A stretch of 64,000 bases of DNA from Patescibacteria group bacterium (GTDB lineage: Bacteria; Patescibacteriota; Minisyncoccia; UBA6257; UBA9933): NCBI GenBank assembly GCA_038057075.1, contig JBBUDV010000006.1, forward strand, positions 2,216 to 66,215, read 5' to 3'. A program made the translations under genes and the position numbers. Within the stretch, counting starts at the first letter, position 1. Every line of letters begins with the position of its first letter. The notes under the pieces were generated by a model, which saw only the letters and a list, made by a program, of their open reading frames with translations, ran no database searches and was not told where the DNA came from. Shown in pieces: positions 16,978 to 42,532 of this stretch.

Positions 16978-17088
16978 AAGAAATTTACTTATATTTATTA
17001 TAACATATAGATAATTCGGCAAAATGTGGATAATCCAATTTCTAAAAAAATGCCCTTTGACGTTGCGTCAAAGGGCTCTTTTTTCATG

Positions 17089-17286
17089 TTATCCGACCAC
17101 ATATAAATATCCGGCAATTCTGTTGCGTCGCCTCTTGCCATTAAAACATTTAATAGACATAACAGGAATTTTTTGCCTCTGAAAATTGCCTTTTAGACAT
17201 CTGTATGTGATTGCGACAATAACTCTTTTGCGAACGTCATTTCTATTGCAACGCAAACTTTTACATCCAAAACAGAATAATTGCAT
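17089..17286 (-). CDS. Small basic Cys-rich ORF
   Basis: Strong SD AAAGGAGG 7 nt upstream of ATG, and a hairpin terminator right after the stop. Confidence 0.3.
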   Translation of the reverse strand: MQLFCFGCKSLRCNRNDVRKRVIVAITYRCLKGNFQRQKIPVMSIKCFNGKRRRNRIAGYLYVVG

Positions 17287-17321
17287 TTCATCGCCTCCTT
17301 TTATCCGATTCTTACATTTGG

Positions 17322-17404
17322 CAGCGAGTCCACAAAGGGAACTTTAATTTCATTTGCGGCGAGCGAACCAAATGAAAAAATGTTACGCTCTGTGGCATTT
17401 TTTA
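17322..17404. repeat. Repeat family A copy 2
   Basis: ttacatttggcagcgagtccacaaagg...tttgcggcgagcgaaccaaatgaaaaaatgttacgctctgtggcatttttt. Confidence 0.8.
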
Positions 17405-17547
17405 TTGAATTTTAATTATTGGAACTAAAAATAGAATATCACTTAAATACTATTTTGTAAAGTGTTTTACTTTTTGCGCAAAAAGTTCGGCGCAAAAAAA
17501 GGCCCCGACAAAATGTCAGAGCCAAAGCGTTAAAACCGAAGTCTGGA

Positions 17548-17661
17548 CTACTTGGAGGGACAGCCGTAGTGGCACAGTTCACCGCCTCTGGAGCAGCTAC
17601 CGCAGGAGCTGATTGTCACTGTCTTGTTTGCCGGCTCTTTCTTGCTGTCGCCTTTTTTCAT
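17548..17661 (-). CDS. Small Cys-rich 37-aa ORF (unknown peptide)
   Basis: MKKGDSKKEPANKTVTISSCGSCSRGGELCHYGCPSK. SD GGAGA sits 6 nt upstream; a sigma70-like promoter (TTGACA-17-TATTTT) and a ~90-nt 5' leader precede it. Too short to appear in the ORF track. Confidence 0.35.
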   Translation of the reverse strand: MKKGDSKKEPANKTVTISSCGSCSRGGELCHYGCPSK

Positions 17662-17750
17662 GCCAGATCTCCTTTTTGTCCGGATTCCTACTTATCCGAC
17701 ATCTAGCCGGCTTGTGGATTCCGAACCATCCTTGGTCATGTTCTGATTAA

Positions 17751-17779
17751 AAAATAGCATATTTATATCAGATTGTCAA
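17751..17779 (-). promoter_or_regulatory. Putative sigma70-like promoter for the 37-aa ORF
   Basis: Minus-strand TTGACA - 17 nt - TATTTT. Confidence 0.4.
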
Positions 17780-17862
17780 GTATTTTAAAACATCATTATT
17801 CGCTTTTATGGAACTTTAATAATTATAGCGCAATTTGTCGTTTTGTGAATAACCTTAAATGA

Positions 17863-17900
17863 TATTTTTACCGCTCGGGTTAACCCGAGCGGTAAAAATA
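17863..17900. repeat. Palindrome-B copy 2, intergenic, terminator-like
   Basis: Identical 38-bp palindrome tatttttaccgctcgggttaacccgagcggtaaaaata, 6 nt after the CAP gene stop. Confidence 0.7.
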
Positions 17901-17905
17901 GTTGA

Positions 17906-18787
17906 TTACTGAAGACATTGATTCAATAAAAACACTTGATTGTTATAAGTTTCAATTATTGTCTTTGTTTGATTAATAAGAGTGTTATACCTGTTTACCA
18001 GCTCATTATATTCTTCTATTTTTTGATTTAAGGAAGGATCGCCTCTTTCCATACTTTCAATCTCGGCCTTTTTCGTTTCAAGAATTGCCGCTAATTGTTC
18101 TATCTCTTTTTTATTAGTATTAATCGCTGATTTTAAATTCTGTTCAATTGCCGGACAATCGGAAGTCGGCCGGCCGAATTCCTGAACCGCAATCCAGACT
18201 TCTTTTCCCTGATAAATTCCTTTCAACGCCGCTACTCCTATTTCTTTATATTTAGAATTTAAGATATTAGCGCGATGCCCCGAAGAATTCATCCAACCTT
18301 CTACCACTGCTTTGTCATTTTCAAAATTTCCCAAAATTAAATTCTCGCCAACTTCCAAATAATCATAGCCCGCTTGTTTTGCCAACTCCGCCGGACCAAC
18401 GCCGTCAACGGGTGAGATATGCTCAAAATATTGATTTTTAAACATATCCCGCGCTTTAGCCAAAGCCGCCTTATTTAAATTTTCATTCTCTTTAAGCGTT
18501 GGAAGTACGGCCATTGCTCTTTCAGTATTAGTCCAAATAATTATTCCTAACGAAGTTAAATTTAATTTATGAACTTCAAAAATTTCTTTAACTATCTTAA
18601 GCGGCGGAGCGGAAATATTTTCAGCGGCTGATTGCGGCGCGGTCAAAAATTCGTTGAATTTTTGATTGGGTTTTAAAGGTTCGGAAAGCGGTTTAGTAGC
18701 CGGCAACTGAAAATTTTTTAAATCGTTTTGAAAAACAAACAGCCCGATTAAAATAAATAAAGCGACAATTAATAACCTAAAAGACAT
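17906..18787 (-). CDS. CAP/SCP/YkwD-like domain protein with C-terminal coiled coil
   Basis: SSGHRANILNSKYKEIGVA matches the CAP signature. Carries an N-terminal TM. Confidence 0.7.
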   Translation of the reverse strand: MSFRLLIVALFILIGLFVFQNDLKNFQLPATKPLSEPLKPNQKFNEFLTAPQSAAENISAPPLKIVKEIFEVHKLNLTSLGIIIWTNTERAMAVLPTLKENENLNKAALAKARDMFKNQYFEHISPVDGVGPAELAKQAGYDYLEVGENLILGNFENDKAVVEGWMNSSGHRANILNSKYKEIGVAALKGIYQGKEVWIAVQEFGRPTSDCPAIEQNLKSAINTNKKEIEQLAAILETKKAEIESMERGDPSLNQKIEEYNELVNRYNTLINQTKTIIETYNNQVFLLNQCLQ

Positions 18788-22732: not shown

Positions 22733-23158
22733 CTATTTCAAATTAACTATATAGGTTTTGATAAATTTTTCTATTGCCAATACAGTTTCGGTTTTTAATT
22801 TTGGGTTTGATTCCGCCACCCATTTGGCAAAATTATAAAGTTCTTGATTATCAACTTCCAACCATTTTTTGTTTTTGTGTAAAAAATAAAAAAGTGTCAT
22901 CATGGCAATCCGTTTATTTCCATTTTTAAACGGATGGTTTTTAACCATTAAATAAAATAATACCGACACTTTCCCAATAAATCCTTTATATAACGGCTTG
23001 CCGCCGAAAGTTTGGAATGGCGCGATTAAACAACTTTCTAAAATATTAGGATAACGCGAACTAAAATCAGGAATTGGCTCATCCCATGCCATCATTTCTT
23101 TTGCCAACCAATAAGCGACATATTCAACTTGAATGATTGAAATTATTTTTATTTTCAT
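22733..23158 (-). CDS. Doc/Fic-family toxin, copy 1
   Basis: Doc-type motif HPFKNGNKR. Confidence 0.7.
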   Translation of the reverse strand: MKIKIISIIQVEYVAYWLAKEMMAWDEPIPDFSSRYPNILESCLIAPFQTFGGKPLYKGFIGKVSVLFYLMVKNHPFKNGNKRIAMMTLFYFLHKNKKWLEVDNQELYNFAKWVAESNPKLKTETVLAIEKFIKTYIVNLK

Positions 23159-23338
23159 TATTCTTTTCCTAATAATTTCAAAGTTTCGCCATATTCCTTG
23201 ATGGTTTTTTTAACGGCTTTTTCAATTTCTCGTTTTTTATCTTCAGTTAAAACCTCTCCCAAAACATCCGGCAAATTTTTTTTATTAATCATAAAATTGC
23301 GACCGATTTTTTGGGCCTTAATTTTACCGGACTTGATC
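22755..23338. repeat. Large direct repeat arm 1 (doc + 3' part of the HTH gene)
   Basis: About 584 bp near-identical to 26076-26659; the flanks have diverged. Confidence 0.85.
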
Positions 23339-23412
23339 TTTTTAAACACAGCTACCCGGCTGATACCCAAAAGCTTTGCCACCTCAATTGTGGAAAACAA
23401 TTTTTTATTCAT
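23158..23412 (-). CDS. Excisionase-family HTH DNA-binding protein (putative antitoxin/regulator), copy 1
   Basis: STIEVAKLLGISRVAVFKKIKSGKIKAQKIGRNFMI. Confidence 0.6.
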   Translation of the reverse strand: MNKKLFSTIEVAKLLGISRVAVFKKIKSGKIKAQKIGRNFMINKKNLPDVLGEVLTEDKKREIEKAVKKTIKEYGETLKLLGKE

Positions 23413-26056: not shown

Positions 26057-26479
26057 TTAAGATTTTACTATGTATGTTTTGATAAATTTTTCTATTGCCA
26101 ATACAGTTTCGGTTTTTAATTTTGGGTTTGATTCCGCCACCCATTTGGCAAAATTATAAAGTTCTTGATTATCAACTTCCAACCATTTTTTGTTTTTGTG
26201 TAAAAAATAAAAAAGTGTCATCATGGCAATCCGTTTATTTCCATTTTTAAACGGATGGTTTTTAACCATTAAATAAAATAATACCGACACTTTCCCAATA
26301 AATCCTTTATATAACGGCTTGCCGCCGAAAGTTTGGAATGGCGCGATTAAACAACTTTCTAAAATATTAGGATAACGCGAACTAAAATCAGGAATTGGCT
26401 CATCCCATGCCATCATTTCTTTTGCCAACCAATAAGCGACATATTCAACTTGAATGATTGAAATTATTTTTATTTTCAT
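26057..26479 (-). CDS. Doc/Fic-family toxin, copy 2
   Basis: Identical over most of its length to copy 1; the C-terminus differs (KTYIVKS). Confidence 0.7.
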   Translation of the reverse strand: MKIKIISIIQVEYVAYWLAKEMMAWDEPIPDFSSRYPNILESCLIAPFQTFGGKPLYKGFIGKVSVLFYLMVKNHPFKNGNKRIAMMTLFYFLHKNKKWLEVDNQELYNFAKWVAESNPKLKTETVLAIEKFIKTYIVKS

Positions 26480-26659
26480 TATTCTTTTCCTAATAATTTC
26501 AAAGTTTCGCCATATTCCTTGATGGTTTTTTTAACGGCTTTTTCAATTTCTCGTTTTTTATCTTCAGTTAAAACCTCTCCCAAAACATCCGGCAAATTTT
26601 TTTTATTAATCATAAAATTGCGACCGATTTTTTGGGCCTTAATTTTACCGGATTTAATA
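26076..26659. repeat. Large direct repeat arm 2
   Basis: Near-identical to 22755-23338, offset 3321 bp. Confidence 0.85.
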
Positions 26660-26736
26660 TTCTTAAATACCGCTACTCGACTAATACCTAACAATTTAGC
26701 GACTTCAATTGTAGATAAAAACTGTTTCCTTATCAT
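26479..26736 (-). CDS. Excisionase-family HTH protein, copy 2
   Basis: N-terminus diverged (MIRKQFLSTIEVAK...); the rest is identical to copy 1. Confidence 0.6.
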   Translation of the reverse strand: MIRKQFLSTIEVAKLLGISRVAVFKNIKSGKIKAQKIGRNFMINKKNLPDVLGEVLTEDKKREIEKAVKKTIKEYGETLKLLGKE

Positions 26737-28335: not shown

Positions 28336-28638
28336 CTAAAGTTTCGGAATACCATTTTCCCCTCTAGAAGAATCTTTCTTTAAAACTTCAGAATTTAATA
28401 ATCGTTTATAGGCAAAAGCTTTTCCTGAACCTGTTTTTAAATATCGCTCAAAATCCTTTGCTAATTTTTGATTCTCAAAAGCGCTATAAAATACTAAATT
28501 CCAAGGTCTATATGGCGAAGTAGATTTTACCAAACCTTTATTATGCTCCAAAAATCTTTTCCGCAAATCTTCAGTATATCCAAAATAAAAATTTTTGGAT
28601 TTTGAGCTCCATAAAATATATGTATAGTGCATAGCCAT
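28336..28638 (-). CDS. GIY-YIG nuclease-domain protein (UPF0213-like)
   Basis: YTYILWSSKSKNFYFGYTEDLRKRFLEHN. Confidence 0.7.
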   Translation of the reverse strand: MAMHYTYILWSSKSKNFYFGYTEDLRKRFLEHNKGLVKSTSPYRPWNLVFYSAFENQKLAKDFERYLKTGSGKAFAYKRLLNSEVLKKDSSRGENGIPKL

Positions 28639-28658
28639 TCTGAAGCTTTAGCGAAAGA

Positions 28659-28733
28659 TGGCTCCGCAGGTAGGATTCGAACCTACGACCAACCGCTTAA
28701 CAGGCGGCCGCTCTACCACTGAGCTACTGCGGA
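28659..28733 (-). tRNA. tRNA-Asn (GTT)
   Basis: Cloverleaf TCCGCAG/CTGCGGA, anticodon loop CTGTTAA, T-loop TTCGAAT, encoded CCA. Confidence 0.85.
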
Positions 28734-29177: not shown

Positions 29178-30527
29178 CTAACTCGCCAAGTCCGTATCTT
29201 TGCTTCTAACAAAGAAATTGTAAATGCCGTAACCCAAAGCCAACCCTAAAAGCAGGTCAAAAAACAAACTATTAACCAGCGAGCCGATAACGTCCAAAAG
29301 TGAAGCCGTGACACTCGCGCTTTCTTTGATAATCACGGCCAGATAAGAATCAACTGAACGCAAATTGCCGCTTGAATCATTATAATTCAGCGTTGAAGCA
29401 AACATCAGAGCGGAACCGCCTCTTGTCAGATTTTTAATTTTAATTTTAACGTTGATAGTCCCCTGTTCTTGCGGATTTATAGTCCCCAGATTAAAACTCA
29501 AATTATTGCCGATTGAAACGGATTTCAAATTGGAGCTTTGGTATTGAACTTCCCCCGGCAAAACGATTTTAAGCGACGCGTTTTTAACAGAACTTTTGCC
29601 GATATTTTTATAATTCAAAATATAAGTGATTTCCTGTCCTGCGGACGGATTTTGATTGTCAACTGACGGGTCCAAAAAAATAATTTCATTTGTTATTTTT
29701 GGAGCCGATTTTTTAACGGTTGAACCGATGTTAAAAATTGACGGCTGAGTCGGCAAAGTCGGTTGAACAGAAATTGATGCCGCAGGCGGAATTGACGGAA
29801 CTGTTCCTGACGGAATCAGTTGATTTGTAAAAGTTAAAATAGAACCGTATGACATGCCTTGAGAACTTTGAGCAATAATACGGTAATAATAAGTTACGTT
29901 TGGAGAAAGATTTTGCAAATAAGCGTAAACCTTCTGATTGTCTCCCCAGCTCCCGACTCCCTGATAGCCGACAAGATATTCAAGCTGATAACTCGTTCCG
30001 TATTCAAACCACGCGGTTGTGTAATTGTAATTCGGATTTACAGTGCCGCTTAACGTAACCGAATTATTGGTTATTAAAGAAACCGGGTTTGTAAAAACCA
30101 ACGGCGCCATACCCGAAGCCGAACTTTGCGTTTTAAACGACATCGCGCCTCCTTTAACTATCCTATTATCGCAATATGAATTTTGAGCCAATATCCGATA
30201 GTAATAAGTCGTGCTCGGCTGAAGATCTCTTAAATTAGCCGAAACAATTGAAATATTGCTGCGATGGGATTCGTAGCCGATTATTGAAGTGTTGGTAAAT
30301 TGGTCACTCGCGCTGTATTCAAACCAAGACCAATAATCCACAGGCGAATTGACGGAGCCGCTGAAAGTTACCGAATTTTTGGTGATATTCGTCGCGCCGC
30401 CGGTGTAAACCGTGGGAAATAAAGAAGGGTTGCAAACACTCTGGGCGTTTGCAAAATTAGGCGCTAAAAACGCCGACAATATTACGCCAAAATAAAAAAT
30501 CCAAATTGGTTGGATTATTTTTTTCAT
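29178..30527 (-). CDS. Cell-surface protein with two FN3-like domains, DUF11-like domain and C-terminal TM anchor
   Basis: Signal peptide; TTYYYRILAQ and VTYYYRIIAQ FN3 signatures. Confidence 0.55.
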   Translation of the reverse strand: MKKIIQPIWIFYFGVILSAFLAPNFANAQSVCNPSLFPTVYTGGATNITKNSVTFSGSVNSPVDYWSWFEYSASDQFTNTSIIGYESHRSNISIVSANLRDLQPSTTYYYRILAQNSYCDNRIVKGGAMSFKTQSSASGMAPLVFTNPVSLITNNSVTLSGTVNPNYNYTTAWFEYGTSYQLEYLVGYQGVGSWGDNQKVYAYLQNLSPNVTYYYRIIAQSSQGMSYGSILTFTNQLIPSGTVPSIPPAASISVQPTLPTQPSIFNIGSTVKKSAPKITNEIIFLDPSVDNQNPSAGQEITYILNYKNIGKSSVKNASLKIVLPGEVQYQSSNLKSVSIGNNLSFNLGTINPQEQGTINVKIKIKNLTRGGSALMFASTLNYNDSSGNLRSVDSYLAVIIKESASVTASLLDVIGSLVNSLFFDLLLGLALGYGIYNFFVRSKDTDLAS

Positions 30528-30609
30528 GACAAAATGATACGTTATTTACGTTATTTTGTCAAGATAATGTACTGGATGAATATATTAGTAACGCTATATA
30601 TGCACTAAA

Positions 30610-30876
30610 CCCCCGGCTTTTGTACAAAAACACGCGTCGTTTTTCCCAGCGTGAAAAGCGCGCTCGACCTCGTTCTCGCTCGTCCGAGACAATAGATTCT
30701 GAAGAATGTCTCGGAGGCGCAAAAAGATTGGTTCCGCTATTTGGCGGATTTTTGCGCCGAGAGGCAAACTCCCGGCTCTCCGCTGGAGAGAGCCGAGGGG
30801 TGATTCTAAAGAACCTATTGTCTCGGACACCTTGCCCGCTCGAACTCCGTACGGTTTCCTTTACAAAAGCCGGAGG
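30610..30876 (+). ncRNA. Candidate structured ncRNA of unknown class (strand tentative)
   Basis: Locally GC-rich. Two nested perfect long-range helices: 30613-30624 with 30862-30873 (12 bp) and 30682-30695 with 30815-30828 (14 bp), plus several internal hairpins. The overlapping ORFs on both strands look non-coding. Confidence 0.4.
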
Positions 30877-30890
30877 TTAGCAGATAAAAT

Positions 30891-31529
30891 TTATTCTTTT
30901 ATCAGAGGCACGAAGCTGAACCCAAAATAATCTTTTCTAACGTATTTATTTTTGGCAATTTTATCAATAACCACAATGCTGTTTTCAATTGGAGCGACTA
31001 TTCTGCCGTTGATTTTAAGCTGTCTTTTCCAGGCAACGGGTATCTCGTTGGATGCCGCGGCAACAATAATCCTGTCAAAAGGCGCTTCCTTTTTATAACC
31101 TTTGGAGCCGTCGCCTAAAATAATCTCAACGTTTCCTTTTTTTACAAAATCGCATTTTGAAATATTCTTCTCCGCCATATCTTTCAATTCTGCTATTCTC
31201 TCAATCGCAAAAACTTTCCCTGAAGATTCTTTACCGACTATATGCGCGAGCAAGGCGGTTTGCCAGCCGCTTCCCGCGCCGATTTCCAAAATTTTTTCGC
31301 CGCTTCTGGGACGAAGAAGTTCAAGCATAAAAGCAACCGTAAGCGGCTGTGAAATCGTCTGCTCAAAGCCAATCGAAAGCGGCTCATTAATATAAGCCCT
31401 TGTTTTATTTTCTTGCAAAACGAAATCTGCCCTGTCAACGGCCTTAAAGGCCTCAATTATCTCCGAAGTTTTAAGATAACCGTCGTTGATTAACAAATTT
31501 ATAAGATTTTCGTAGTCAGGATTATTCAT
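30891..31529 (-). CDS. pcm: Protein-L-isoaspartate O-methyltransferase
   Basis: SAM motif ILEIGAGSGWQTALLA. Confidence 0.85.
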   Translation of the reverse strand: MNNPDYENLINLLINDGYLKTSEIIEAFKAVDRADFVLQENKTRAYINEPLSIGFEQTISQPLTVAFMLELLRPRSGEKILEIGAGSGWQTALLAHIVGKESSGKVFAIERIAELKDMAEKNISKCDFVKKGNVEIILGDGSKGYKKEAPFDRIIVAAASNEIPVAWKRQLKINGRIVAPIENSIVVIDKIAKNKYVRKDYFGFSFVPLIKE

Positions 31530-40087: not shown

Positions 40088-40543
40088 ATGGATAATAGAG
40101 AAAAAATCTCCAAACTCATAGAAATCGCAAAAGGTTTAATCGGAACTCCCTATAAATACGGCGCTTATCTGGAACAAAATAATGGGGCGTTGGCATTTGA
40201 TTGTTCCTCTTTTGTCCAACACGTTTTTAAGCAAATAGAAATTGAACTCCCCCGCTCTTCAGTTCTTCAAGCCGTTGCTCCAGGCCAAGAAATAAAAAAT
40301 TTGGAACTAGCCAAACCGGCTGATTTGATATTTTTTGAAGGAAATCGCGGCCATTACAGACATGATTTATTCCCAAATAGAAAAATTTATATTGGCCATC
40401 TGGGAATTTATCTCGGCAATGACGAAATAATACATGCCACTAATAACAGCAGCGCCTCCGGCGTGGTTATTCAAAAAATTTCAGAGCTTCAAAAAGAATT
40501 CCCCGAAGCGTATAAAATAGTGATGATAAAAAGATTTATATAG
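40088..40543 (+). CDS. NlpC/P60 (C40) family peptidase
   Basis: FDCSSFVQHVF with downstream His residues. The ATG starts 2 nt after the tRNA-fMet 3' end. Confidence 0.7.
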   Translation: MDNREKISKLIEIAKGLIGTPYKYGAYLEQNNGALAFDCSSFVQHVFKQIEIELPRSSVLQAVAPGQEIKNLELAKPADLIFFEGNRGHYRHDLFPNRKIYIGHLGIYLGNDEIIHATNNSSASGVVIQKISELQKEFPEAYKIVMIKRFI

Positions 40544-40548
40544 CAAGC

Positions 40549-40587
40549 AAAACACTGATATACTTAAGTATATCAGTGTTTTTTAAT
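40549..40587 (+). terminator. Rho-independent terminator
   Basis: acactgatatac ttaa gtatatcagtgt followed by tttttt. Confidence 0.7.
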
Positions 40588-40639
40588 ATTTCCCGCGCTA
40601 TCTTTAAAGATAGCAAAGATAATTTGATTCTTTATAAAA

Positions 40640-40966
40640 TAAAAGACCCCTGCCAAACTCCGTTGGCAGGGGTACGCCTTGTGTTCTTCGCGGCCACTGG
40701 CGCTGTAGTGGCCACGTATATCCCTGTTTCTCTATCCCCAAAACCGGGAATCGTTTATGAGGGGACAGCCAGCTGTTAACATACTGCTTCGTTTGGCCCG
40801 CTGTGACGACCATCCAAAATCTTAAAACAATTAATTTTTAAAGTGCTTTATTATCGTCCTGTACCCCGTAGGCTATGAAAGACGACAACCATCAACTCTA
40901 ACCCTTAAGTATCAAACGCTTCTTTTTAAGGGGGCGTTTTTAAGGACTTCATTAGGTGATGTTAAC
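40640..40966 (-). ncRNA. Candidate ~325-nt structured ncRNA of unknown class
   Basis: Minus-strand sigma70-like promoter (TTGACT-17-TATATT around 40970-40998) and a minus-strand intrinsic terminator at 40645-40672 (cccctgcc...ggcagggg + UCUUUUAUUUU) bracket a GC-rich hairpin-dense region. The only ORF here is a dubious 69 aa ORF that reads through the terminator. Confidence 0.35.
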
Positions 40967-41068
40967 AATAATATAACAAACTTCAAATTAAAAGTCAATA
41001 GCTGAAAAACAAGGTAAATTCAGCTTATTTTTCTTGATTTTAAAGGTCTTCTTTGATACCTTTACAAA

Positions 41069-42532
41069 ATGGCGCAAAATCAGGGAAAAAACTTAATAAC
41101 CCGCCCGCCGATTGTCGTTGTAATGGGCCATGTTGACCACGGAAAAACCACTTTATTGGACAACATTAAGAAAACAAATTTGGCCGCTAAAGAAGCCGGC
41201 GGAATTACGCAATCAATCGGAGCTTATGAAATTAAACACGAGGGTAAAAAAATTACCTTTATAGATACTCCCGGACACGAGGCGTTTTCAAAAATGCGAG
41301 CCCGCGGAGCCAAAATCGCGGACTTGGCAATTTTGGTCGTGGCCGCTGATGATAGCGTTCAACCGCAGACAAAAGAATCAATCAATATCTTAAACGAAAC
41401 AAAAACGCCGTTTATCGTTGCAATAAATAAAATAGACAAACCCAACGCCGATATTGAAAAAACCAAAAACGATTTGATGCAAAATAACGTTTTTTTGGAA
41501 GGCGCGGGCGGCAACGTGTCTTGGCATAAAATTTCCGCCAAAAGCGGAGAAGGCATTAACGAACTTTTAGATTTAATTTTATTGGCCGCGGAATTGGAAA
41601 ATTTGACTTACGACCCCGATGTTTCGGCAAAAGGAATTATTATTGAAGCCAAACTGGACAGCCGTAGAGGCATTACCGCCTCGGCGATAATTGAAAACGG
41701 CATTTTAAAAGTCGGAAACCACATTGCGACTAAAACCGCCTGCGGAAAGATAAAGTCCTTGGGAAACTTCATTGGAGAACCGGTAAGCCAGCTTGAACCC
41801 TCGGCTCCGGCCTTGATTTTGGGTTTTGAAACATTGCCCGAAATCGGCGAAGAATTCATGACGGGAGAAATCGCGCTTTCCAAAACTGAAACTAAAAAAG
41901 AAATCACAATCCGGCCCAAAGCCGAAATTAAAACAAAAGAAACCAGGCCTCAATTGAATCTCATTATTAAAGCGGACGTAAGCGGCTCTTTGGAAGCGTT
42001 AAGCGGAATCGTCAAAAACCTTAATCAAGAAAAAATCAAAATTAACGTTCTGGAAGAACAAGTCGGCGAAATCACCGATGGCGACGTAAAATCCGCCGGC
42101 GACAATAACTCCATAATAATCGGCTTTAACGTCAAAACAACCAAAGCCGCTGAAAATCTGGCTCGCGCCCGAGAAATAAAAATCGTCACCAGTAAAATCA
42201 TCTATGAAATTATTCAAATGATTGAAAAAGAAATGGAAGCGATTGAAAAACCGGCGCCTTTGGCCGAGATAGAAATTCTTTCAATTTTCAGCCAAAAAGA
42301 CAAAAAACAATTAGTTGGCGGAAAAGTCGCAAGCGGAACGCTTAAAAAGAACATATCAGTTAAAATTTTAAGGCAGAATGAAGAAATCGGCTCCGGCAAA
42401 ATAACCAGCTTAAAATCGTTTAAGCAGGAAGTTAATCAAATCCTTTCGCCTAACGAAGGCGGCATTATGATTGAATCGGTAACAATAATAATTGTCGGCG
42501 ACCGCTTAATTGTTGAAGCTCCTAAAAAATAA
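41069..42532 (+). CDS. infB: Translation initiation factor IF-2, short form
   Basis: [25 protein letters not shown]-domain motifs. Confidence 0.9.

Follow-up and report, generated by a model that had tools for sequence, protein, structure and literature searches.

What is the strongly folded, GC-rich block that separates pcm from a surface-protein gene in a groundwater Patescibacteria genome, and why has it stayed folded? The window (the whole 64-kb stretch of DNA analysed here) comes from a Patescibacteria (Paceibacteria/Wolfebacteria-like) bacterium of Hainich groundwater, and to our knowledge almost no non-coding elements have been characterised in Patescibacteria. A preliminary description had drawn attention to the block, proposing either an uncharacterised structured RNA or a divergent 6S-like RNA. 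The inversion of the element between two sister lineages (A and B), its narrow distribution and the measured constraint on its base pairing are new here.

Anatomy, folding and searches for known families

The element occupies window positions 30608-30878 (271 nt) and is a GC-rich block of nested palindromes. Its GC content is 54%, compared with 38% in the genome, and the 30600-30799 region reaches 0.545 against 0.381 for the whole 64-kb window, in line with the enrichment over its surroundings reported previously. The 12-bp outer pairing already recognised between CCGGCTTTTGTA (30613-30624) and TACAAAAGCCGG (30865-30876) extends to 17 nt with 94% complementarity and one mismatch (30608-30624/30862-30878), and the 14-bp inner pairing between GTCCGAGACAATAG (30682-30695) and CTATTGTCTCGGAC (30815-30828) extends to 26 nt with 88% complementarity (30682-30707/30803-30828). 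In addition, the CACGC/GCGTG hairpin is present at 30631-30653, the GGCGCAAAAA/TTTTTGCGCC hairpin at 30716-30758, the CCGC/GCGG hairpin at 30733-30748, where it is nested in the preceding one, and the GGCTCTCC/GGAGAGCC hairpin inside 30768-30801. All of these sequence features of the preliminary description were confirmed at their positions, far beyond chance expectation.

The left terminal inverted repeat AACCCCCGGCTTTTGTA (30608-30624) serves on the + strand as 5' arm of the closing helix and delimits, on one side, the segment inverted in lineage B. In the interval from the outer to the inner helix, the minimum free energy (MFE) fold places two small hairpins (30631-30653 and 30657-30680; together 30631-30680), and three CGCTCG motifs can be read there, one of them within the first copy of a 14-nt direct repeat (GCGCGCTCGACCTC, 30658-30671) detected by repeat search. 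The inner inverted repeat, with its left arm GTCCGAGACAATAGATTCTGAAGAAT at 30682-30707 pairing with its right arm ATTCTAAAGAACCTATTGTCTCGGAC at 30803-30828, encloses a core (30708-30802) for which the MFE fold and the RNAalifold consensus agree on a three-way junction, composed of a helix (30708-30712/30761-30765), the hairpin at 30716-30758 with its nested stem at 30733-30748, and the hairpin at 30768-30801. On the + strand the nested stem is followed by TTTTT, which fits a terminator-like pattern. A mostly unpaired stretch (30829-30861) follows and holds the second copy of the direct repeat (GCCCGCTCGAACTC, 30834-30847), the two copies flanking the inner domain. The right terminal inverted repeat TACAAAAGCCGGAGGTT (30862-30878) lies 12 nt from the pcm stop codon.

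Folding analysis revealed an exceptionally stable structure in every form. The + strand RNA folds at -128.7 kcal/mol (z = -8.65), with 0/200 shuffles as good, and the - strand RNA at -133.4 kcal/mol (z = -8.41); folded as DNA, the element has a z of -7.97, and no shuffle equalled the real fold in either of the latter two cases. In both lineages, the window + strand gives the inner domain an advantage in stability of 7.5-9 kcal/mol, and the full element of lineage A is slightly more stable on the - strand.

Consistent with their earlier assessment as non-coding, the overlapping 86-aa and 78-aa ORFs had no Pfam match, no codon periodicity, and no homologue among 5.8 billion or 1.84 billion proteins. 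The substitutions between lineages A and B fall on the three codon positions 9, 7 and 8 times (hand count), without three-base periodicity.

An Rfam search, which the preliminary description had suggested as a check, was run with Rfam 15. At gathering thresholds, only six tRNAs were found in the whole window and the element was unmatched; at E <= 10, nothing within 30450-30950 overlapped 30608-30878. Weak matches to SpF43 and TtnuCD25 lie in the AT-rich flank of the element and were regarded as noise. The earlier statement that RNase P, tmRNA and SRP signatures are not recognisable likewise stands, with no model match at E <= 10 and no tmRNA found by ARAGORN. Among the tRNAs, tRNA-Asn (28659-28733) adjoins a gene for a 100-aa GIY-YIG domain protein (28336-28733).

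Several RNA types that depend on partner genes were also considered and rejected. A Pfam scan of the 64-kb window, covering its 66 other ORFs of 80 aa or more, detected no recombinase, integrase, resolvase/invertase, transposase or reverse transcriptase. A retron msr-msd, an omega or bridge RNA and a DGR template were rejected because the 64 kb encode no reverse transcriptase, TnpB/IscB or IS110 protein; a DGR template is further opposed by the lack of sequence similarity between the element and the FN3 gene or the remainder of the window. Group II intron domain V, SRP domain IV and RNase P P4 were rejected for want of a partner gene, repeat or model match. Elsewhere in the window, a toxin-antitoxin-like HTH_17 and Fic/Doc gene pair occurs in two copies 3 kb apart (22733-23412 and 26057-26736), whose two Fic/Doc proteins have equal Pfam scores.

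Distribution, inversion and constraint on base pairing

The element was found in the two sister lineages A and B only. In lineage A, an identical element was recovered on 11 distinct contigs from 11 samples and a variant with four SNPs (A') on three further contigs; all 14 distinct contigs (14 samples) carry it in one orientation and run straight through it. Lineage B, recovered as the NCBI MAG GCA_016219675.1 and as Logan contigs of SRR12113407, has a pcm gene 93% and an FN3 gene 83-84% identical to those of lineage A, and its copy of the element is diverged by ~13% and bounded by terminal repeats of 21 nt with one mismatch. A more distant relative (L093; pcm 67% and FN3 55% identical, same gene order) has no element, and its 66-nt pcm-FN3 spacer consists of the short spacer and the FN3 promoter; this relative might have lost the element rather than never carried it. 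Another relative (L087), whose pcm gene is 94% identical, also lacks any remnant of the element, although another gene lies downstream of pcm there.

Searches beyond these lineages returned no further copy. With nhmmer and a covariance model (R1), no element was detected beside pcm in 80 GTDB-genome pcm loci or in extra pcm loci; a weak R1 match (L008 1715-1839, 11.8 bits) appears to combine the 3' end of a small ORF with an ordinary terminator hairpin and was discarded. No second copy exists in the 64-kb window, four exact patterns retrieved no related sequence from IMG/VR, one terminal-repeat pattern retrieved none from JGI metagenomes, and blastn against phage and plasmid records gave no match to the element. 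A 20-mer match in IMG/VR (L094) was dismissed as chance, since those 20 bases alone align on a GC-rich contig, as were three JGI matches (L095-L097) that share only the 12-nt ends around unrelated interiors, two of them inside ORFs. One of these JGI contigs (Ga0179591_1072907) carries at L096 1729-2005 an unrelated intergenic sequence of ~277 nt that is apparently a long palindrome with the 12-nt ends of the element by chance.

Lineage B carries everything between the 17-21-nt terminal inverted repeats in the reverse orientation with respect to pcm and to the FN3 gene alike. The pcm stop codon is followed by the terminal repeat and then by '...TAAAAACACGCGTC', which is the FN3-proximal end in the window, and the pcm-proximal end of the window stands ahead of the FN3 promoter. 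Judged from this arrangement, the flip and the terminal repeats point either to an invertible segment or to an insertion of the foldback type. The two independent assemblies of lineage B are each interrupted within the element, at differing positions (L088 at its end, 1719; L091 and L092 at their start, 1), and all lineage-A assemblies span it.

The helices survived this inversion. In a comparison of three distinct sequences, with the reference structure derived from one of them and with lineage-B sequence lacking for 30648-30670, lineages A and B differ by 31 substitutions over 244 comparable positions, affecting 14/154 paired sites (9%) and 17/90 unpaired sites (19%); the divergence at four-fold degenerate sites is 24% for pcm and 34% for FN3. 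The substitutions disrupt only 2 pairs, compared with 11.4 +/- 2.4 for random placement of the same substitutions (P about 1.5e-4; at most two broken pairs in 0.015% of 20,000 trials). Moreover, 98.8% of cells are paired, a share that falls to 36-49% once the partners are displaced by one to three columns. In four internal pairs both members were substituted, always from G-C to A-U; three of them (30686/30824, 30688/30822 and 30704/30806) lie within the inner inverted repeat, and the fourth, the hairpin pair 30780/30788, went from C-G to U-A in lineage B. Four more pairs show a one-sided change via G-U. The pairing of the element is therefore actively kept, and the conservation and covariation among homologues that the preliminary description had named for examination were both found in lineage B. 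A local attenuator-like pairing (30683-30691/30707-30715) was rejected because it is not conserved in lineage B, and the long-range partner covaries. An 18-nt stretch (30829-30846) that is mostly unpaired in the fold is identical in A and B.

Compensatory change of this kind could be mimicked by arm-to-arm correction at the DNA level, and the element could thus be a functionless DNA palindrome whose arms are kept complementary by template switching (quasi-palindrome correction) and arm-to-arm conversion. Such a palindrome would account for a structure that is equally strong on both strands and as DNA, for near-perfect helices whose mismatches show no strand bias in our own tally, and for an element that is absent from relatives and flipped as expected for repeat-repeat recombination. 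The explanation nevertheless appears rather improbable, as the overall divergence of ~13% is well below that at four-fold sites, the invariant 18-nt stretch lies mostly outside the helices, and the four internal double changes are uniformly G-C to A-U transitions, for which a G-U wobble intermediate is possible. We know of no demonstration that template switching maintains several separate hairpins and two long-range helices together.

The strand on which selection may act was sought in the transition-type non-Watson-Crick pairs. By our own tally, these read as G-U on the pcm-sense strand three times and on the other strand zero times in lineage B, and 3 to 3 in A/A'. The pattern is compatible with selection on the strand of the pcm transcript with relics from before the flip, or equally with no strand preference, and a strand assignment by G-U versus A-C pairs was abandoned because these counts give no consistent bias.

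Transcriptional context and alternative functions

All genes around the element are encoded on the - strand, in the order dnaK, a gene for a 330-aa protein, dnaJ, a gene for a 154-aa protein, pcm, the element and the FN3/DUF11 gene. The pcm gene (30891-31529, - strand), encoding protein-L-isoaspartate O-methyltransferase (PF01135, E = 2.8e-58), is the last gene of the dnaK-dnaJ-pcm string, and the closing helix of the element begins 12 nt past its stop codon (30891-30893). Downstream of the element lies the gene for a 449-aa FN3/DUF11 surface protein (29178-30527, - strand), recognised by Pfam matches and homologues. Between A and A', the FN3 gene contains a hypervariable stretch (window 29600-30400) with 21 mismatches in 30200-30399 and 42 in 30000-30199, and most bins around it have 0-3 mismatches per 200 nt; the FN3 ORF of L006 is 503 aa long, compared with 449 aa.

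A sigma-70-type promoter of the FN3 gene (TTGACA, 17-nt spacer, TATCAT; 11/12 consensus matches) was identified at 30534-30562 on the - strand, outside the element, which lies upstream of it. This promoter is kept in lineage B and in the element-free relative L093, and since its layout is the same with and without the element, the element is not the FN3 leader. The -10 box ends 6 nt ahead of the ATG at 30527 and no Shine-Dalgarno sequence was seen for the gene, a layout kept in three lineages (30527-30562; L091 226-260; L093 2968-3002). This conserved arrangement suggests, on sequence grounds, that the mRNA of the FN3 surface protein is leaderless.

No sigma-70-like promoter within the element or directed into it was found in lineage A or B, and no terminator of its own is recognisable on either strand. 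The closing stem is followed by UUUAGUG in lineage A and by AUUUUGGUGU in lineage B, neither of which is a clean U-tract, and a terminator role is thus not evident. Canonical terminators of the hairpin-plus-T-run type are readable elsewhere in the genome, and none follows pcm. Apparent bidirectional terminators of this type stand near 17050-17085 and 17866-17900, at a region without any ORF of at least 80 aa (17022-17906, 880 nt), whose GC-rich part (17480-17720) folds weakly (z = -2.2).

These observations bear on the possibility that the element is a gene in its own right, encoding a new structured RNA that acts in trans and is restricted to this lineage, with the terminal repeats serving as its closing helix. 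The GC content of the element is similar to that of the tRNAs of the genome (54% versus 57-60%); its fold is branched around a three-way junction, with compensatory transitions both in its long-range helices and in local hairpins; the invariant, mostly unpaired 18 nt stand beside variable loops; the inner domain is more stable on the same window strand in both lineages; and no known family matches. Such a gene is nonetheless unlikely, because neither a promoter nor a terminator was found on either strand, the distribution is very narrow, the non-Watson-Crick pairs show no consistent strand bias, and the long near-perfect helices have few of the bulges and conserved junction bases typical of functional RNAs. 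A flip between the arms of the closing helix exposes the opposite strand to any outside promoter, making an ordinary RNA gene with a fixed outside promoter hard to reconcile with the inversion. As such, the earlier proposal of an uncharacterised structured RNA holds in part: the element is structured, belongs to no Rfam family and has helices conserved with compensatory changes, but an ordinary RNA gene fits it poorly.

The other earlier option, a divergent 6S-like RNA, found no support, and a divergent 6S or other housekeeping RNA (RNase P, SRP or tmRNA) missed by the Rfam models is highly improbable. Divergent RNAs are frequent in CPR bacteria, and the element resembles 6S RNA (Rfam RF00013 and relatives) in being non-coding and highly paired and in its general shape, with a closing stem, a partly open middle and an internal stem. 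6S RNA is a rod of ~180-200 nt with a single central bubble. The element, by comparison, is ~90 nt longer and branched, has neither promoter nor terminator and gives no match at E <= 10 to the models of 6S, RNase P, SRP or tmRNA; furthermore, relatives lack it in their orthologous spacer, the search around pcm in 80 genomes did not detect it, and the sister lineage carries it inverted relative to any outside promoter. A separate region of the window, 40625-40900 on the - strand, lies in a gene-free gap between an NlpC/P60 gene and infB (40543-41069, 530 nt), folds well (z = -4.3), has no Rfam match and ends in what appears to be a clean intrinsic terminator (ACCCCUGCCAA...UUGGCAGGGGUCUUUUAUUUU). 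This region may encode an unannotated small RNA and is a more promising place for a 6S-type search than the pcm-FN3 element.

The occurrence of both orientations also raises the possibility of an inverton, in which a site-specific recombinase would flip the 237-bp segment and thereby change how much transcription of the pcm operon runs on toward the surface-protein gene, for instance through the terminator-like hairpin at 30733-30748, whose T-run is confined to one strand. In known invertons there is a promoter, and a dedicated recombinase flips them within one population. The element shares several properties with systems such as fimS of E. coli and the capsule and surface-protein promoters of Bacteroides, including a segment of a few hundred bp, short inverted repeats (17-21 bp, typical of invertons, as is the segment size), a position directly upstream of a fast-evolving surface-protein gene and the existence of both orientations in nature, although between lineages only. 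The breaks of both lineage-B assemblies within the element and the conservation in lineage B of the small hairpin with T5 on one strand only would also agree with active flipping. Even so, this explanation is quite unlikely: the two orientations are fixed in different lineages, with 14/14 lineage-A contigs from 14 samples in one orientation; the segment has no internal promoter, and the FN3 promoter lies outside and downstream of it, apparently driving a leaderless mRNA; no recombinase or invertase is encoded in the 64 kb; and the GC-rich, highly self-paired interior is unlike known invertons. No paper was found in the literature on invertons or comparable structured elements in Patescibacteria.

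A further possibility, in which the element would be a new, self-contained structured RNA module of CPR bacteria whose closing helix doubles as recombination sites and which the cell can flip, is considered decidedly unlikely. If true, it would amount to an invertible terminator or insulator gating read-through from the chaperone-pcm genes into a variable surface-protein locus, or to a gene that produces two complementary structured RNAs. Active flipping beside a hypervariable surface-protein gene, or a discrete transcript, would represent a new regulatory or RNA class in Patescibacteria.

Proposed foldback/MITE-like insertion and comparison with known systems

Taken together, the flip, the insertion-like distribution, the lack of an own promoter or terminator and the retention of pairing are best fitted by a lineage-specific foldback/MITE-like insertion whose structure has been retained, irrespective of orientation, at the 3' end of the pcm transcript, a reading that is favoured here tentatively and that we regard as plausible rather than probable. 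On this proposal, an insertion of ~270 bp, with terminal inverted repeats of 17-21 bp, nested and local GC-rich palindromes and no gene, would have landed in the short spacer between pcm and the FN3 gene and would afterwards have been kept for its base pairing, with neither its sequence nor its orientation mattering. One lineage would then have flipped the element through exchange between the terminal repeats, with the helices still preserved. Its action would most likely be as RNA, and the tail of the dnaK-dnaJ-pcm message is the only transcript that would obviously cross it. In either orientation, that message would fold, 12 nt past the pcm stop, into a highly stable block of several helices, which may hinder 3'-to-5' exonucleases and may also stop read-through into the separate, apparently leaderless FN3 promoter. 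A mobile or foreign origin, transcription from pcm and a stabiliser or insulator role are thus the inferred parts of this proposal.

Several findings stand against this reading. One copy of the element was seen in the 64-kb window and in the part of other sequence that was searched, no target-site duplication is visible, the 64 kb encode no transposase, and the several independent hairpins and the three-way junction are more elaborate than most MITEs. The high GC content would be expected equally from selection for RNA helices and from a foreign origin.

If the insertion reading is true, the locus would provide a small and clean natural experiment in an ultra-small CPR genome, with pairing kept through ~25-35% silent-site divergence and a complete inversion, implying that the value of the element lies in its structure alone. 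It would also advise caution in scans of AT-rich genomes, where well-folding GC-rich regions with compensatory changes may not be classical RNA genes.

Among known systems, REPs are units of 20-40 bp that occur in hundreds of copies and are mobilised by RAYT transposases. The element resembles the REP/BIME sequences of enterobacteria and pseudomonads as a GC-rich extragenic palindrome that lies behind a stop codon between genes and is found in either orientation, but it is 271 bp long, was found in one copy and without a RAYT, and is not built of 20-40-bp high-copy palindromic units. According to published reports, REP/BIME sequences protect the mRNA upstream of them from 3' exonucleases and are targeted by RNase R and PNPase, and an action on the 3' tail of transcripts is reported for some MITEs as well (PMC3184786, PMC12320835).

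The closest likeness is to MITEs and foldback elements such as Correia/NEMIS, ERIC, Nezha and Chunjie (PMC3184786, PMC2229807), which are likewise gene-free, shorter than 400 bp, bounded by terminal inverted repeats and intergenic, with filled and empty sites in relatives, either orientation and very stable RNA folds. Published bacterial MITEs are below ~400 bp and gene-free, with terminal repeats and very stable RNA stem-loops (PMC3184786); the element has terminal repeats (17 nt in A, 21 nt in B), a gene-free core and a length of 271 bp, and the relative L093 retains the pcm-FN3 order with an empty site. Chunjie folds at about -98 to -130 kcal/mol (PMC3184786), comparable to -127 to -133 kcal/mol for the element. 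Membership of a MITE family is not established. No target-site duplication is visible, the outside bases instead continuing the inverted repeat (CTAA.../...TTAG) in both lineages; neither a parent IS nor a transposase is known; and the sequence searched, which included the 64-kb window, yielded a single copy. Furthermore, the element is GC-rich in an AT-rich genome, and its interior is not a simple long hairpin but a set of nested and local helices kept by compensatory change.
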